Shown here piece by piece: positions 7,408-62,657 of a stretch of 64,000 bases of DNA. The stretch spans positions 11,116-75,115 of the forward strand of contig JAVZBY010000004.1 of assembly GCA_038874655.1 (NCBI GenBank), written 5' to 3'. Below the pieces are notes generated by a model. It was not told the DNA's origin. It worked only from the letters and a program-made list of their open reading frames with translations, and ran no database searches. The stretch's first letter is position 1. Each line of letters opens with the position of its first letter. A program made the position numbers and the translations under genes. This DNA is from Candidatus Woesearchaeota archaeon. Lineage in GTDB: Archaea > Nanobdellota > Nanobdellia > Woesearchaeales > GW2011-AR15.

Positions 7408-7959
7408 TTACTTACCCACAAACAAATTATATTTCTCATTCCCTAATAATTCTGAAATAATCCTTTTAGAAAACATTTTTTGTGGATCTGGAATTAATTT
7501 TATTCTATTTTTTAAATCCTGGAAAGATTCAAAAGGCTTTTCTTGTCTTTGTTCTATTATTTCCCACATATGTTTTTTTCCTAAGCCAGGTAATAATTCT
7601 AAAACATGCATTCTTGTTGTAATTGGCTGGCTTTTATTAATAAAATCCACAAATCTCTTTTCATTTTTCATAACTAAATCATTTACAACAAATTCTAATT
7701 CTGCTCTTGCTGTTGCTGTTAATTTACTAGGATTTAGTCTACCATTTATATGATGAATCAAATCTCTTTTTCCTTCACCTATATAAATTTCTTGATGAAT
7801 ATTTAAAACAACATCTTTTTTTGGAACTAATTCTAACAATGTGAAATTATTAACTCCAATTGCTTGCACAATTGGTGTTTTTTTAAAACTAGGGCTATTA
7901 TCAAAAGGATAACCATTTGGCAAAAAATCTAAAACAATTGCTTTTTCTTCTTTATTCAT
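7408..7959 (-). CDS. DUF655-family protein (conserved archaeal protein of the L21e-Rpo4 cluster)
   Basis: Sits downstream of rpoF and rpl21e in the order conserved in archaea. C-terminal HhH-like region. GGGGG SD lies 6 nt before the second ATG. Confidence 0.5.
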   Translation of the reverse strand: MNKEEKAIVLDFLPNGYPFDNSPSFKKTPIVQAIGVNNFTLLELVPKKDVVLNIHQEIYIGEGKRDLIHHINGRLNPSKLTATARAELEFVVNDLVMKNEKRFVDFINKSQPITTRMHVLELLPGLGKKHMWEIIEQRQEKPFESFQDLKNRIKLIPDPQKMFSKRIISELLGNEKYNLFVGK

Positions 7960-8087
7960 TTTCATCCCCCATTAAAATATTCTAAAATTTTTTAAAAATT
8001 AAACTACATTACTTTTACTAAATATTAAATCAAAAAAGAATAAACTATTTAAATCTTTTTTTAATTAAACTTATTGAAGCTCTAAAT

Positions 8088-8435
8088 TCAAGCTTTTTTA
8101 TATTTGTTAATTGCTTCAATAATTTTATCCATATTTTCTTTACTTATTGTTAAAGAATATCCCTGTAAAATAACTTTTAATTCTTCAACACTTCCTGGCA
8201 AAACATCTAATATCTTTTTTACAATAACTTCCTTCATTCTAGGAATTTCTAATTTTAAAATTTCTTTTTCTAATTCTTCCGCATCCTTTTCTTTTAAAAC
8301 AGAGACATTATTAACATATTCTTCTGTTTTTCCTGCTCTTAAAGAAAGCTCAGTATCTCTTTTTTTTATATCTTTTAAGAATTTTTTCAAATCATAAATA
8401 CTAATTGGCTCTTCAGAAATAACTTTTGGATTCAT
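8088..8435 (-). CDS. rpoF: DNA-directed RNA polymerase subunit Rpo4/F
   Basis: Small acidic, helical protein immediately downstream of L21e, matching the conserved L21e-RpoF-DUF655 cluster. SD AGGTGA. Confidence 0.6.
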   Translation of the reverse strand: MNPKVISEEPISIYDLKKFLKDIKKRDTELSLRAGKTEEYVNNVSVLKEKDAEELEKEILKLEIPRMKEVIVKKILDVLPGSVEELKVILQGYSLTISKENMDKIIEAINKYKKA

Positions 8436-8523
8436 CTTTTCACCTTTTAAATAATGAATAATTTAATTATAAATAAAATTTATTAAACCATTCTAAAAAT
8501 TAAACAAAACTTTCCTAACACTA

Positions 8524-8814
8524 CTAATTACTTCTTACCAAATGAACTGGATGCACTATAATCATTTTATCCTTATTACCATCCTTGATCAAGACATTAT
8601 AACATTCTCCTTGCTTTCCTGTAATATAACCAATTTTACCATGAAATCTTGGATAATACCTTCCTTTATGATAAGAAGGCTCTACCTTTAATACAACTTT
8701 GTCCCCTTCTTTAAACTCTTGAAAAAACTTTCTAATTGAAAGTTTGCCTTTTGATCTATAATCCTTTCTAAATTTTTGTCTTGTTCCTCTTCCAAAACTA
8801 TGATGATGTTGCAT
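8524..8814 (-). CDS. rpl21e: Ribosomal protein L21e
   Basis: MQHHHSFGRGTRQKFRK..GDKVV..HPVHL is the typical eL21 sequence. Confidence 0.85.
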   Translation of the reverse strand: MQHHHSFGRGTRQKFRKDYRSKGKLSIRKFFQEFKEGDKVVLKVEPSYHKGRYYPRFHGKIGYITGKQGECYNVLIKDGNKDKMIIVHPVHLVRSN

Positions 8815-8865
8815 ATTGCTATGAAAAAAACAAATGTTTATAAAGATTACTATAAAACAAACCCT

Positions 8866-9120
8866 TTATTTTCTATAAATAGAAAAAACATTTCCAATTT
8901 CACTTACAAGAAGAGCTTTTGATTTTTGCAATACTTTTTCTATGATTTCTGATTTCTCCATAGGACAATTGTTTAAAATCTTTATTTTTATTAAATGCCT
9001 TTTTTTTAAAAGCTTTTCAACCTCATTATAAACATTATTACTTAACCCAAATTTACCTATTCTTAAGATTGGTTCTAAATTTTTTGCTTTTTCTCTTAAA
9101 TATTTTAAATTTTCTTCCAT
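8866..9120 (-). CDS. CRM-domain RNA-binding protein (YhbY/CRS1 family)
   Basis: About 84 aa with a GKFGLS motif and the typical CRM-domain length. Confidence 0.55.
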   Translation of the reverse strand: MEENLKYLREKAKNLEPILRIGKFGLSNNVYNEVEKLLKKRHLIKIKILNNCPMEKSEIIEKVLQKSKALLVSEIGNVFSIYRK

Positions 9121-9180
9121 TTTAAAAAAATATATGATAAAATGATTAAAATAAATTATTAAAATATAGTATTTAAAAAA

Positions 9181-9975
9181 TCATTTTCCTATCTTACAAC
9201 CTTGAGGCAATATTCTAATAATATCATCCAAACTACCAGAATAATTTAACTTAATTTTTATTTTTTTTGCAATATCCGAAGATTTTTCATTTCCCTGTAA
9301 AATCTCTAAAAATGATTTGCAGTTTTTTTTAATTGATGATTCAGGTGCTATCATTAATTTTCCCTCATACTTTAACTCAATATTCTCGTTCATAATACCA
9401 ATAAAAATCTTTAAAACAGGTTTTAAAAAATTCTTTTTACCATAAATCATAAAAGAACCTCTAGTAATATATTCTCCTGCTTTTGTTTCTTTTGTAACTT
9501 GCTCTGGATTAACATAAAAAACTTCTGTCATTGTTCTACCTAACTTCCAGGCTTTTGAAAAAACAGCAGTAAAAATCGCTGTTTCTTCTAAGGATAAATC
9601 ACTTGGTTTTTTGCCATTTGTTTTTAAAACAACAAAAGGACTACCTGCCATCTCAGTGTGAAAAACTAAATCAGTTTTTTCAGTATACTTTTTTATAATT
9701 AACTCGTTTGTTCCTGCATCTCTACCAGCAATAACCAAAAAACCTTCACTTGTAAAAAACCACCTAAATTTTTCAAACCATTCTTTTTTAATACTTTTTA
9801 TTTCTTCTTCTTTTTCTTGCTTTTTTAATTCATCCTCTAATAGTTTTAATTTTTTTATTGTTTCTTCTAATGCAAGCTTAGCTCTTTCTGCTTTTTTTCT
9901 CTCTATCTTTGCTTGCTCAAAATAATGAGAAGCATTTTGGTCAATTGTTTTAGTTAAATCTAATGTAATACGCAT
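9181..9975 (-). CDS. NFACT-R (DUF814) domain protein, a short Rqc2/NEMF-like fragment
   Basis: WFFTSEGFLVIAGRDAGTNELII..VFHTEMAGSPFVVL matches the NFACT-R core. An N-terminal coiled coil is present, but the NFACT-N domain is missing. Confidence 0.55.
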   Translation of the reverse strand: MRITLDLTKTIDQNASHYFEQAKIERKKAERAKLALEETIKKLKLLEDELKKQEKEEEIKSIKKEWFEKFRWFFTSEGFLVIAGRDAGTNELIIKKYTEKTDLVFHTEMAGSPFVVLKTNGKKPSDLSLEETAIFTAVFSKAWKLGRTMTEVFYVNPEQVTKETKAGEYITRGSFMIYGKKNFLKPVLKIFIGIMNENIELKYEGKLMIAPESSIKKNCKSFLEILQGNEKSSDIAKKIKIKLNYSGSLDDIIRILPQGCKIGK

Positions 9976-56596: not shown

Positions 56597-57088
56597 TTAA
56601 AAGACATGTATTTCATGTACTGTTTTATAACTATGTAATTCATCATCATTAAACCACAAGGAAATTTCTTTCTTTGCATTTTCAATTGTATCTGAAGCAT
56701 GAATTAAATTCTTAATTGCAATTCCTTTTTTGTCAGCATATTCATAAGAATGATGAGCAAAATCCCCCCTTATTGTTCCAGGCAATGCTTTTCTTGGCTC
56801 TGTTGAACCAACCATTTTTCTAACAACTTCAACTGCATGAATGCCTTCTAAAACCATTGCAATTACTGGGCCTTCTGTAATAAATGCCTCTAATGGCTTA
56901 TAAAAAGGTTTATTTATATGCTCAGAATAATGTTTTTTTGAAAAATCTTCATCAACCCAAACCATTTTCATGCCAACTATCTTTAAACCTGCATTTTCAA
57001 ATCTTGTAATAATATTACCAATTATTCCTCTTTGTACTGCATCTGGCTTTAATAAAACTAAGGTTCTTTCAATTAAACTTTGTGGCAT
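56597..57088 (-). CDS. ndk: Nucleoside diphosphate kinase
   Basis: ERTLVLLKPDAVQRG..NIIHASD. Active-site His in the IHASD block. Confidence 0.9.
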   Translation of the reverse strand: MPQSLIERTLVLLKPDAVQRGIIGNIITRFENAGLKIVGMKMVWVDEDFSKKHYSEHINKPFYKPLEAFITEGPVIAMVLEGIHAVEVVRKMVGSTEPRKALPGTIRGDFAHHSYEYADKKGIAIKNLIHASDTIENAKKEISLWFNDDELHSYKTVHEIHVF

Positions 57089-57456: not shown

Positions 57457-57756
57457 TTATCCTTGACCTCTTCCTGTCTTATTTAGTGGCCTTGCTTCAA
57501 TTTCTGTTTCTCTTAACATTAATATATCACCTATTTGCACTGGCCCTCTAACATTTCTTCTTAAAATTTTATTTGCATCTCTACCTTCTAAAACCTTACA
57601 TCTAACTTGAGTAACATCTCCTCTTGTTCCTGTTCTACCTATTATTTCTTCAACTCTAGCTTGCCATGCTTGACTAAAATTAACTTGACCTTTAACTTCA
57701 AGCTCAGCTTCTTTTTTTTCTTTACTATGCATCTTTTTTAAAGCCATATTAAACAC
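57457..57756 (-). CDS. rps28e: Ribosomal protein S28e, with N-terminal K/E-rich extension
   Basis: [37 protein letters not shown] is the eS28 core. Confidence 0.8.
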
Positions 57757-58136: not shown

Positions 58137-58528
58137 TTTTTCACCCTCGTTCAAAATTTTTACTTTTATATTTTTTTCTTTTTTTATAAAATTTCATCCA
58201 AATAACTGGTAATCAGAAAGATTACCTTCATTCAGGCATATGCCCTCATAATTCATTAGGTATATTTTTGGAAATAGCTCTCTTTTATAAAGATTTTGAA
58301 TTTTTCGCATTAATGTGTTATCTGCAAAATATTTCGCATTAAAGTAAATTAATTTAAGGTATTAATTAATTTATCTATATTTTAACTTTTTTAAATTTTA
58401 ATAAATTATACCTTATTATTTTTTAAATAATAAAATAGTAAATTAGTAAATAATTAGATAGTAAAAAACATCACCAATTAAATATCAATCTATAATAAAT
58501 TAAAATAAAATCATAAAAATAATAAAAA

Positions 58529-59833
58529 TCAAATTATCAACTTACAGACTCTGTTTTCATCTAATGATTTAAATTTTCTAAATTCATCTAAAAAATATAA
58601 AGCTAAACTACGCAGTTTAAGAATATCTAAAAGCAAATTAGTATGTTTCTCTTTTAATAATTTGTTAATATCTAATATTAAAAACTTAGGTGATGAGTCT
58701 TTATAGCGATTTATTCGATATTCTATATAGTTTTTTAATTCTGATTCATCAATTCCTTCATCATTAGGAATTTCTAAAAGATTCAATATTTCCTCAAGAT
58801 TTTTAATTCCAATACCACATAACTTCCCATATAAAGAACTCAACTCTACTGTATCCATGCCTAACCATTTTTCTTTTACTTTTTCAGAACTTTTAGAAAG
58901 AACGATTTTCATTCTCCTATTAAAACGAAATAAAAAATAGTCAATAGTTTGAATTATTAATAAAAGTTTAAACGCATCCTTACATATATTAAATCTAGCT
59001 TTTTTTATTTCTTCAGCAGTCCCATATTTTGGTTTTGAATTTGTATTATCCCATTTATCATATCCCTTGATTAAAATTAGATAATACCCTGAAAAATCAT
59101 TTATATTTAACTTCTTTGATGCAGAACATAACATCCTTATAATATACTTATTATAACCCACATAGCCTCTATGTGTTAAAGCGTTTAAATAAAATCTTAA
59201 GATTTCTTTCTTCTTTTCTTCCATAATACCTAAATTTTTAATATAGGTATCTATAAATTCTATTAATAATTTATCATAAACTTTTTTTCTTTCACTTCTC
59301 TTTGGATTTAAATCCGAGTCTGTCAATCCCACGAGATCAATTTCTTCTTTAGTTAATTCTTTCCCTTTATAATATTTAATTAAAATTTTATGTTGCGGGG
59401 AGTCTTCAATAGTATCATGACTTAATGCTGCTAAGATTACTAAAAAGTCAGTTGTTCCTAACATTGCTGCTACAGTAATTGGATGAGAAACTACTAAAGC
59501 AGGTCCGTATTTTCTTTTTTTTGGTGAACATTCCTTAAAATCCCAAGAAATTGTAAGTGCTGCACAAGCACTTCTAGCAAGTATAATTTTTTCTAAATCA
59601 CTTAAATGTCTTATATCTATTATTGCATTTAATTGTTCAATAACCTCTTGTAAATCCTCATAACCTAAGTCACTTAAACTTTTAATAGTTCCATTAATTT
59701 GATAATTAAAATTTTTAGAATAGGGTTTAGGCCATAAATCTATATTCAAATGTGATGAAATTAGAAATTTAACTATTTCATAATTTCTCTCAACATTAAT
59801 TCCATAGTTTTGTTTTTGGGAGTAAATATTCAC
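58529..59833 (-). CDS. RelA/SpoT-type HD-domain ((p)ppGpp hydrolase-like) protein
   Basis: HPITVAAMLGTTDFLVILAALSHDTIED and KGYDKWDNTNS align with the SpoT hydrolase blocks HP..VA.IL..DTI.AALLHD.VED and KLADRLHNMRT. No synthetase domain. Confidence 0.5.
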   Translation of the reverse strand: MNIYSQKQNYGINVERNYEIVKFLISSHLNIDLWPKPYSKNFNYQINGTIKSLSDLGYEDLQEVIEQLNAIIDIRHLSDLEKIILARSACAALTISWDFKECSPKKRKYGPALVVSHPITVAAMLGTTDFLVILAALSHDTIEDSPQHKILIKYYKGKELTKEEIDLVGLTDSDLNPKRSERKKVYDKLLIEFIDTYIKNLGIMEEKKKEILRFYLNALTHRGYVGYNKYIIRMLCSASKKLNINDFSGYYLILIKGYDKWDNTNSKPKYGTAEEIKKARFNICKDAFKLLLIIQTIDYFLFRFNRRMKIVLSKSSEKVKEKWLGMDTVELSSLYGKLCGIGIKNLEEILNLLEIPNDEGIDESELKNYIEYRINRYKDSSPKFLILDINKLLKEKHTNLLLDILKLRSLALYFLDEFRKFKSLDENRVCKLII

Positions 59834-60003: not shown

Positions 60004-61461
60004 ATGCCTAAGAAAAAACAAGATTCAAAAGAAGATAATGATATACAAAATAAAAAAGAAATTTCCTCTCATAATTCTATAGAAAAAGATAAATTAAAAA
60101 AATCAAAAAAAATCTCAAAAAAAGAAAAAAATGATGAAAAACAGAAAGAAAACATTGCTGAGATAAAAAATGAGAATTTAGAAAAAACAAATGAACTAAC
60201 AACAGAAAAAATATCTCAAAAAAAAGAAGAAAAAGAGAATTTACAACCAGAATTAAACATAGGCTTAGTAGGTCATGTTGATCATGGAAAAACTACATTA
60301 ACAGAAAAATTAACTGGGAAATGGACAGACACACATTCTGAAGAAATAAAAAGAGGTATTACAATAAGATTAGGTTATGCTGATGCAACTTTTAGAAAAT
60401 GTAATGAATGTCCTGAGCCAGATTGTTATACAACAAAAGAAACATGTAAAAAAGGGCATAAAGCAAACTTTTTAAGAAAAGTTTCATTTGTAGATGCTCC
60501 TGGTCATGAATCATTAATGGCAACAATGTTATCTGGAGCAACCTTAATGGATGGCGCTCTTTTGTTAATTGCTGCAAATGAAGAATGTCCACAACCTCAA
60601 ACAAGAGAGCATTTAATGGCTTTAAAAATAATGGGTATTAAAAACATTGTTATTGTACAAAACAAAATTGATTTAGTAAGTGAGGAACAAGCCTTAAAAA
60701 ACTATAATCAAATAAAAGAATTTTTAAAAAATACTGAATATGAAAATGCTCCTATAATTCCTGTTTCTGCTCAGCATAATATAAATGTAGATGCCATAAT
60801 AGAAGCAATCCAAAAATATATTCCTACTCCAGAAAGAAATGAAAACTCAAATCCTATAATGTTTGTTGCAAGGTCTTTTGATATAAACAAACCTGGAACT
60901 TTACCAAAAGACATGAAAGGTGGTGTTCTAGGAGGTGCTTTACAACAGGGAATTTTGAAAGTGGGTGATGAAATAGAAATAAGACCAGGCAGAGTCTATG
61001 AAGAAGCAAATAAAAAAGTTTGGAAACCTATAAAAACAAAAATATTAAGTTTAATGACAGGAAATACTAAAGTTGATTCTGTAAAACCCGGTGGCTCAAT
61101 TGCTGTAATGACACCTTTAGATCCTAGCATTGTCAAATCTGATAGTTTAACTGGTAATATTGTTGGATTACCTGATAAATTACCTCCTGTATGGGACACA
61201 CTAAAACTAGAAGTCCATTTATTGGAAAGAGTTGTTGGTTCAAAAGAAGATTTAAAAGTAGATTCTATAAAAATGTCAGAAGTTTTAATGTTGAATGTCA
61301 ATTCTGCTGCAACAGTCGGTTTTGTAACAAAACTTAGTAAAAACATTATTGAATGTAAATTAAAACTGCCTGTTTGTGCTGAAAAAGAATCAAGAGTCAC
61401 AATTTCTAGAAGAATGGGCACAAGATTTAGGTTAATTGGTTATGGTATTATTAAAGAGTGA
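60004..61461 (+). CDS. eif2g: Translation initiation factor aIF-2 gamma, with an N-terminal K/E-rich extension of about 80 aa
   Basis: [15 protein letters not shown] and NKID GTPase motifs, plus the zinc knuckle C..C..C..C. Confidence 0.9.
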
Positions 61462-61510: not shown

Positions 61511-62125
61511 ATGGATTTGTCTAATTTATCACCTGAAGAAATTATTGAACTACAAAAAAAGAATTGTATATTCTGTAAAATAATTAAAAGAGAGATTCCA
61601 AGTTATGAAATTTATAGAGATGATAAAGTAATTGTAATTTTGGATATAAACCCTGCTAATGAGGGACATTGTTTAATATTACCTATACAACATTATCAAA
61701 TATTACCACAAATTCCTGAAAATATTATTTCTCATATGGCCATTATAGCAAAAAGAACCTCTAAATTAATGTTAAAATCCTTAGGTATAAAAGGCACAAG
61801 TGTTTTTATTGCAAATGGTGCAATTGCAGGTCAAAAATCACCTCATTTTATGATCCATTTAATTCCGAGAAAACCTAATGATATGCTATTTCAGTTAAAT
61901 AAAAAAAATGTGGATATAAAAAAATTAGAAGAAATAAAAACAAAATTATTTGTAAAAATGTCTCAATTAAGTGGAAAACAAATACAAATAGAGCATAACT
62001 CTGAAGAAAATGAAAACAGTAAAGAAAGCATAAAAGATAATGACAAAGAAAGTAGTGTTCAAAAAAATAATGTGAGAAATGAAAAAATAGATATTGATAA
62101 AATTTCAAAATTATTTGGGCAATAA
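61511..62125 (+). CDS. HIT-family hydrolase with C-terminal charged extension
   Basis: Blocks EIYRDDKVIVILDINPANEGHCLILP and HFMIHLIP are of HIT type. Confidence 0.6.
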   Translation: MDLSNLSPEEIIELQKKNCIFCKIIKREIPSYEIYRDDKVIVILDINPANEGHCLILPIQHYQILPQIPENIISHMAIIAKRTSKLMLKSLGIKGTSVFIANGAIAGQKSPHFMIHLIPRKPNDMLFQLNKKNVDIKKLEEIKTKLFVKMSQLSGKQIQIEHNSEENENSKESIKDNDKESSVQKNNVRNEKIDIDKISKLFGQ

Positions 62126-62141: not shown

Positions 62142-62657
62142 ATGAGCTGTGATGTTTGTAAGATTTTAGAAAATAAAAAAGAATTTCAATTAATTTATGA
62201 AGATGAGGTATGTTTTGCTATATTACATGAAAGTCCAGCTATTGAAGGTCATACTTTAGTAATTCCAAAAAAACATACCCCTATTTTAGAAGAAGCCGAT
62301 GATCAAACAATTGCTCATTTATTTAATATTGCAAATAAAATTTCTACTGCTATATTTGAAACACTTGGTTCTTTTGGAACAAACATTTTAATAAACAATG
62401 GTCTCTCTGCTGGTCAGGATTTACCACATCTTATATTAAATGTTTTACCAAGAAAAGAAAATGATAACATCAATTTAGAATGGAATGCTAAAAAAGCATC
62501 TGAAAATGAACTAAAAACAATTCAATCAATACTTAAAACTTATAGTGATTATATCTATTCTGGACAAGAAAAAAAAACAGAAGTAAAAATAAAAGAAGAA
62601 TCGAATAATGAAAAAAAAGAAGATTATTCAATAAAATCTTTAAGAAGAATGCCTTAA
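62142..62657 (+). CDS. HIT-like protein, tandem paralogue
   Basis: EGHTLVIPKKH and a variant histidine triad, LPHLILNVLP. SD AGGTGA. Confidence 0.5.
   Translation: MSCDVCKILENKKEFQLIYEDEVCFAILHESPAIEGHTLVIPKKHTPILEEADDQTIAHLFNIANKISTAIFETLGSFGTNILINNGLSAGQDLPHLILNVLPRKENDNINLEWNAKKASENELKTIQSILKTYSDYIYSGQEKKTEVKIKEESNNEKKEDYSIKSLRRMP

Follow-up and report, generated by a model that had tools for sequence, protein, structure and literature searches.

A rare protein family of Woesearchaeota, encoded among translation genes, with a probable RelA/SpoT-type HD hydrolase domain

The hydrolase domains of RelA/SpoT homologs (RSH) carry six catalytic motifs, HD1 to HD6, as defined by Bisiak et al. 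(2022; PMC9293644), and the small alarmone hydrolases (SAHs) form a class of small single-domain proteins with an HD domain only (Atkinson et al., 2011; PMC3153485). In archaea, RSH proteins are rare and sporadic and were ascribed to horizontal transfer (PMC3153485), and Haloferax volcanii and Sulfolobus acidocaldarius lacked detectable (p)ppGpp (PMC8646023). Alarmone-type nucleotide signalling is not firmly established in archaea. Li et al. (2021; PMC8407392) reported annotated RelA/SpoT homologs for 41.7% of the Woesearchaeota genomes, so that a SpoT-like domain is in itself not unexpected in this lineage. Here, we describe the gene QXE31_04315, which lies in a stretch of 64,000 nucleotides (the window) of an 82.6-kb contig (JAVZBY010000004.1) from a Candidatus Woesearchaeota metagenome-assembled genome (MAG), and which encodes a protein with, very probably, an RSH-type HD domain. 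What is new is the family to which this protein belongs: it is unannotated, missed by the curated models, architecturally distinct, very rare (about nine members), found in a translation-gene neighbourhood together with a partner gene, and duplicated in one genome.

An earlier reading of the sequence without database searches (the sequence-only reading) had described a protein of 434 aa lacking a synthetase domain, with two blocks resembling the (p)ppGpp hydrolase HD domain. The open reading frame (ORF) is identical to the NCBI gene call MEM3374419.1/QXE31_04315, labelled 'hypothetical protein', and a synthetase domain was detected with Pfam, NCBIfam and an RSH synthetase hidden Markov model (HMM) neither in the protein nor elsewhere in the window. 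Both blocks are present, block 1 at residues 107-145 and block 2 (KGYDKWDNTNS) at residues 256-266, and the resemblance to RSH proteins is above chance in comparisons with TIGR00691, MESH1, the family profile and hhalign. Searched as a single protein, QXE31_04315 reached 15.7 bits with the generic Pfam model HD (PF01966) against a gathering threshold of 22 (E=0.019, residues 124-158 only), and human MESH1 was retrieved from the PDB by phmmer with E=0.0058. The HMM check proposed by the sequence-only reading turned out divided: spoT_relA (TIGR00691) was the best NCBIfam match (E=1.5e-4) but remained far under its cut-off (20.3 versus 499.2 bits), and Pfam HD_4 (PF13328) matched none of six family members at E<=1. 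As the curated cut-offs are not reached, the assignment to the RSH superfamily is based on profile-profile comparison, on motifs and on the fold.

A profile built from six family members was searched against the PDB, and its 11 best matches are all RSH hydrolase domains, with E-values from 3e-4; they comprise the SAHs 7qoe and 7qoc, MESH1, Rel, RelA, SpoT, Drosophila Mesh1 and Lmo0812. Comparison by hhalign with nine bacterial RSH HD domains gave a probability of 97% across block 1, a value inflated by the choice of these nine domains by the block-1 pattern, for which reason block 2 was tested separately and the PDB profile search is relied on. With the comparison restricted to the part following block 1, hhalign gave as its best alignment LILIKGYDKWDN with LLVKLADRLHNM, i.e., block 2 with KLADRLHNM (P=0.008; reversed control 0.52). 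Alternatively, the protein might be a generic phosphohydrolase of the HD superfamily, such as a nucleotidase, dNTPase or phosphodiesterase (PDE), which is unrelated to SpoT and shares only the universal H...HD...D metal motif. This is highly improbable given that the RSH-specific HDxxED, the HD1 Arg ten residues ahead of HD2 and the D[KR]xxN block are all present, that the family profile retrieved no other HD family at E<=1 although the PDB holds many of them, and that the identity of the matches amounts to 13-21% for RSH proteins versus 6-11% for PDEs. These RSH-only profile matches and RSH-specific motifs bear out the SpoT-type assignment of the domain.

All of the six published motifs are found in the window protein, four of them in block 1 (RKYGPALVVSHPITVAAMLGTTDFLVILAALSHDTIEDS) and two in block 2. 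The HD1 arginine, which stacks on the purine base (R44 in RelSeq, R24 in RelH), corresponds to R107 and is kept in all family members; the metal-binding His of HD2 is H117 (SHPITV) and is kept in all members but the degenerate P0003; the His-Asp metal ligands of HD3 are H139-D140, invariant across the family. The Glu-Asp pair of HD4 (HDxxED), which was proposed to drive the nucleophilic attack, is represented by E143-D144, with ED in all members apart from KD in P0003, the metal-liganding HD5 (Asp plus Arg/Lys) by D259-K260, with DR in the other full-length members, and the HD6 Asn, four residues past the HD5 Asp, by N263, which is kept in all members possessing this region. The putative Mn-binding residues, the conservation of which had been left to be checked by the sequence-only reading, thus occupy the motif positions. 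The distance from R107 to H117 is 10 residues as in bacterial SAHs, compared with 9 in long RSHs and 11 in Mesh1, the HD1 loop of which is lengthened by two insertions, and a Ser follows at N+3 after HD6 as in RelH. The equivalent of RelSeq Ser46, a guanine contact, is aromatic (Y109). The motifs are complete in six of the eight tabulated relatives, the others being P0003 and the L014 member, which is split into two ORFs, and sequence inspection showed that the member of locus L029 carries them too. We consider it likely that QXE31_04315 is catalytically active.

Prediction with AlphaFold2 (AF2) from the single sequence resulted in a poor model (predicted local distance difference test, pLDDT, 36), and prediction with the six-sequence alignment gave a pLDDT of 78.6 and a predicted template modelling score of 0.80, with residues 13-230 mostly above 90. 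This model suggests an all-alpha RSH hydrolase fold with an active-site cavity. When the complete model was searched with Foldseek in the PDB and BFVD, no E-value was significant, and a high probability was reached only by MESH1 (0.92) and, in BFVD, a phage 'guanosine polyphosphate pyrophosphohydrolase' (0.96), for which probability and TM-score rather than the E-value are informative. The domain is embedded in additional regions (Table 1). The N-terminal region, to which canonical RSH hydrolases have no counterpart, overlaps a segment modelled with pLDDT >90 (residues ~20-100); a likeness to CarD found with the family profile in the PDB was not significant (E~0.2) and was discarded. In six members HD3 and HD5 lie 116-121 residues apart (window protein, 120) and in L021 179 residues, exceeding the 58-69 residues of canonical RSH hydrolases and thereby revealing an insertion of about 50 residues in the family. 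For the C-terminal 134 residues of the window protein no match was found, not even to the conserved C-terminal region that the other members share (YY.GGF...F.GS...LYKYA...PF.NG).

Word-indexed homology searches with the protein and the family profile retrieved only the protein itself and P0004, so that an exhaustive HMMER search of 1.84 billion representatives was needed, which identified five relatives (P0002-P0006; E-values from 6e-50 to 7e-7). Three further members were found on metagenome contigs and by synteny, i.e., those of L021 and L014 and a 484-aa gene in L029, so that about nine members of up to 599 aa were found, and both blocks are conserved throughout the alignment. Scans of GTDB species genomes and viral contigs showed no family member, only bacterial and phage RSH proteins with block 1, and tblastn with the family retrieves long Rel/SpoT proteins. 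The family is rare and centred on Woesearchaeota. One might suppose that the window gene is a bacterial or phage SAH recently acquired by horizontal transfer, the origin suggested for other RSH genes of archaea and of DPANN; archaeal RSHs are generally ascribed to bacterial origin (PMC3153485; PMC8407392), and phage SAHs exist (L027 and the BFVD match). However, identity to any bacterial or phage RSH is confined to the motif block, the exhaustive search returned only family members at E<=1e-3, and PADLOC gave no match and PHROGs only sub-threshold ones. Moreover, the GC content is about 25% throughout the window, the composition of QXE31_04315 being unremarkable compared with its surroundings and host-like, and the family has an architecture of its own, lies in a conserved archaeal synteny and occurs as two paralogs within one genome. 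Recent acquisition is thus hardly credible; an ancient transfer followed by long divergence is possible.

Two side observations concern RSH proteins outside the family. An RSH hydrolase ORF in L016 and L017 (~7995-8162) spans 56 aa under code 11 and 304 aa with TGA decoded; reading under code 25 (TGA = Gly) brings back the canonical residues of HxGQxRK and FGDEV, and the contig, with 27% GC, probably derives from a code-25 (Gracilibacteria/Absconditabacteria-like) bacterium. Furthermore, two large multi-transmembrane proteins of a Bacteroidota MAG (ORFs of 1176 and 791 aa; L004 3082-6609; L009 4357-6729) end in a canonical SpoT-type HD hydrolase domain, i.e., an unusual fusion of membrane sensor and SAH.

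The relative P0002 corresponds to QXE31_00465 and is located, with the adjoining partner gene QXE31_00470, on a 295-kb contig of matching composition. As this contig belongs to the same MAG, QXE31_04315 is a second paralog, with 38% identity over residues 27-299, and represents a relocated and diverged copy, now upstream of an L7Ae-S28e-L24e-NDK cluster. It might be a non-catalytic relic, i.e., a decaying duplicate of the syntenic QXE31_00465 in which the fold was kept and the function lost: the window gene lies outside of the conserved neighbourhood and without a partner, the C-terminal region of the family is replaced, and decayed members do exist (P0003 and L014). However, the full-length ORF is intact, and the retention of six of six motifs at only 38% identity can hardly be accounted for unless the active site is under purifying selection, making loss of function very unlikely.

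In five loci (L024, L025, L026, L021 and L029) a DUF371 gene and a PUA (eIF2D-like) gene are followed by the family gene and an unannotated partner gene of about 470 aa. RIO1 is found upstream in L024, L025 and probably L021 and is absent in L029, the contig of L026 being too short to judge, and a Methyltranf_PUA gene and aIF5B follow downstream on the opposite strand in L024, L025, L029 and apparently L021. The gap between HD gene and partner is as short as 5-12 bp, and QXE31_00465, the canonical copy of the genome, is apparently co-transcribed with its partner among translation genes. In the window, neither a homolog of the partner nor the RIO1-DUF371-PUA block was found. Two of the loci deserve a remark of their own. 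L014 contains the same gene block with a decayed HD-family gene, which is split into two ORFs (7563-8360 and 8472-9479), and lacks the partner; an apparent 'partner' at this locus turned out to be the C-terminal half of the split gene. P0003 (L026 828-1646) is truncated to 272 aa and has lost HD2, HD5 and HD6, with KD in place of ED, yet it lies beside an intact partner gene.

Searches of Pfam, NCBIfam, PHROGs and the PDB gave no match for the partner proteins. Their invariant residues resemble those of RxKxxxSxxxK, DxxG and ExQ, the motifs of RSH synthetases, and follow each other in the corresponding order, and this triple, with patterns that had been relaxed after the partner had been seen, occurs among 282 ORFs in true RSHs and partners only and in none of 20,000 shuffles. 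Identification of the partner as an RSH synthetase failed in hhalign, with P-values of 0.53 and 0.31 being no better than those of reversed controls, and is kept as a lead only; an HMM of the RSH synthetase core did not rank the partners above background ORFs. A paralogous origin of the partner from the HD family was ruled out by blastp. It is imaginable, and on our assessment improbable, that HD family and partner make up a two-gene system of archaea which is native to the lineage and no recent loan from bacteria, and in which the partner is a cryptic, extremely divergent RSH-like nucleotidyl or pyrophosphoryl transferase making a 3'-pyrophosphorylated nucleotide or RNA end, and the HD proteins, including the window paralog, erase this mark. 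If true, this would be a stringent-response-like switch wired into the DPANN translation apparatus.

Table 1. Coordinates of QXE31_04315, of its regions (window positions) and of the partner genes (positions in the respective loci).
Feature	Residues	Position	Strand	Remarks
Complete ORF	1-434	58529..59833	minus	434 aa + stop, GTG start; NCBI MEM3374419.1/QXE31_04315
N-terminal region	1-78	59600..59833	minus	common to the family; long helix, three-strand beta-meander with conserved WPKP (P35, P37), helix
All-helical HD hydrolase domain, very probably RSH-type (RelA/SpoT/MESH1)	~79-300	58934..59599	minus	including insertion
Catalytic block 1	107-145	59399..59515	minus	HD1 R107 (with K108), HD2 H117, HD3 H139-D140, HD4 E143-D144
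HD4-HD5 segment	146-255	59069..59398	minus	carries the family-specific insertion of ~50 aa, extra helices
Catalytic block 2, KGYDKWDNTNS	256-266	59036..59068	minus	HD5 D259-K260, HD6 N263, S266 at N+3
C-terminal region (134 aa)	301-434	58532..58933	minus	predicted helical, unique to the window paralog; AF2 pLDDT mostly 40-85
Partner genes (463-524 aa; P0007-P0010; QXE31_00470, QW757_00845)		L024 10119-11510; L025 11662-13140; L026 1747-3177; L021 9472-11046; L029 8001-9395		directly downstream of the HD-family gene

Overall, the best explanation, which we hold with moderate confidence, is an RSH-type hydrolase with extra domains that removes the 3'-pyrophosphate from a (p)ppGpp- or (pp)pApp-type nucleotide. 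In this mechanism, H117, H139, D140 and D259 would hold a Mn2+ ion, E143 and D144 would activate a water molecule for attack on the ribose-3' (pyro)phosphate, and R107 together with N263 would position the purine base, the most likely reaction being the one carried out by SpoT and the SAHs. The data themselves show homology, motif conservation, a predicted fold, paralogy and synteny, from which metal, chemistry and substrate are inferred. The N-terminal domain, the insertion and the C-terminal helices would probably serve regulation or the docking of a macromolecular partner. The conservation of HD1 and HD6 makes (p)ppGpp or (pp)pApp the default substrates, and an alarmone-type nucleotide is tentatively proposed as the physiological substrate. 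Given the translation-gene neighbourhood and the Y109 substitution, a non-alarmone or RNA substrate is plausible as well.

The same fold and chemistry might thus act on a non-alarmone substrate, removing a ribose 2'/3'-phosphate or pyrophosphate from NADPH, CoA, PAPS or an RNA 3' end, such as a pyrophosphorylated tRNA-CCA, with a role in translation or RNA quality control. Substrate promiscuity is known for RSH hydrolases: MESH1 was shown to be an NADPH phosphatase (bioRxiv 10.1101/325266) and a CoA 3'-phosphatase (PMC13221220), MESH1 and ATfaRel strip pyrophosphate from the tRNA 3' CCA end (bioRxiv 10.1101/2021.04.30.441581), and the PDB holds a MESH1-PAPS complex (9chy). Furthermore, the family is always found among translation genes (PUA/eIF2D-like, RIO1, aIF5B and the PUA methyltransferase for the relatives; L7Ae, S28e, L24e and aIF2-gamma in the window), extra domains of this size would go well with a macromolecular substrate, and the guanine-contacting Ser46 equivalent is not conserved. 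However, the HD1 Arg and the HD6 Asn, which coordinate the base in (p)ppGpp hydrolases, are conserved. Informational genes make up a large share of the small DPANN genomes, and the adjacency to translation genes is therefore weak evidence. We regard a non-alarmone substrate as less likely, and hydrolysis of a (p)ppGpp- or (pp)pApp-type nucleotide is preferred.

The sequence-only reading had placed the gene in an archaeon, which agrees with the NCBI label and the neighbouring archaeal translation genes: L7Ae, S28e, L24e, NDK, EF-2 and EF-1alpha lie 3' of QXE31_04315 on the same strand, and aIF2-gamma and then two HIT-family genes lie divergently on its 5' side. Rfam and tRNA scans gave no match adjoining the gene. 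Some features of this surrounding were observed in passing. The aIF2-gamma (60004-61461, plus strand, 485 aa) carries an unusual Lys/Glu-rich N-terminal extension of about 80 residues ahead of the GTPase G1 motif, and nucleotide-handling genes cluster within 3 kb of the HD gene, namely the tandem HIT-family genes (61511-62125 and 62142-62657, plus strand) and NDK (56597-57088, minus strand). The AT-rich intergenic region of 375 bp between the HD gene and L7Ae (58155-58528) contains a repeated 'taatgcgaaa' and may accommodate the promoter and 5'UTR of L7Ae, perhaps including an autoregulatory k-turn; neither Rfam nor ARAGORN gave a match in it. The S28e ORF (57457-57756, minus strand) is listed with 99 aa and a GTG start, its Pfam domain covering residues 29-91, and the true start is probably located further downstream.

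As a summary, a separate and very divergent family of RSH-type hydrolases, overlooked by standard annotation, is maintained in at least some Woesearchaeota and widens the range of sequences and architectures known for the RSH hydrolase domain. QXE31_04315, QXE31_00465 and QXE31_00470 are clonable candidates for tracing the 3'-phosphorylated nucleotide or RNA that is made or met by these archaea, which are reduced and probably symbiotic. If the substrate is ordinary (p)ppGpp scavenged from neighbours, the family would be a modest addition to the RSH catalogue.

Compared with the known systems, the window protein differs from the bacterial SAHs, e.g., RelH of Corynebacterium glutamicum (7qoc) and of Leptospira levettii (7qoe), PaSAH (6z3n) and TdActApo2 (7p1y), which comprise about 170-200 aa. 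It likewise lacks a synthetase, but with its 434 aa it is no single-domain protein, adding an N-terminal domain of about 78 aa, the HD4-HD5 insertion of about 50 aa and the C-terminal region at 13-21% identity; moreover, it belongs to an archaeal family with a conserved archaeal neighbourhood, is missed by Pfam HD_4 and has an aromatic residue for the Ser46 equivalent. Compared with MESH1/HDDC3 (3nr1, 5vxa, 9chy), its HD1 loop is one residue shorter and the protein is much larger due to the extra domains. The sequence-only reading, the interpretation of which is supported in part, had considered a Mesh1-like hydrolase; no specific (orthologous) kinship with Mesh1 or Mesh1-L is evident, and the family profile ranks the RelH SAHs slightly above MESH1. 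The hydrolase domains of the long RSHs (Rel, SpoT; 7qpr, 8acu, 5xnx) share the catalytic motifs and are represented by the best NCBIfam match, TIGR00691, whereas the window protein has no synthetase, TGS or ACT domain and an HD1 loop that is one residue longer. The locus does not resemble a toxSAS-SAH toxin-antitoxin module, as no synthetase-like ORF is present in the window, the neighbours are L7Ae and aIF2-gamma, and PADLOC gave no match. Finally, the family shares with the annotated DPANN RelA/SpoT homologs (Li et al., 2021; PMC8407392), here set apart by their published description, and with the sporadic archaeal SAHs pbcSpo, Mesh1-L and divSpo (Atkinson et al., 2011; PMC3153485) the presence of an RSH-type domain in archaea, including Woesearchaeota. 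However, those proteins are recognised by standard annotation and were inferred to be bacterial acquisitions, whereas the members of the present family are labelled 'hypothetical', score below the Pfam and NCBIfam cut-offs and display an architecture and synteny of their own.
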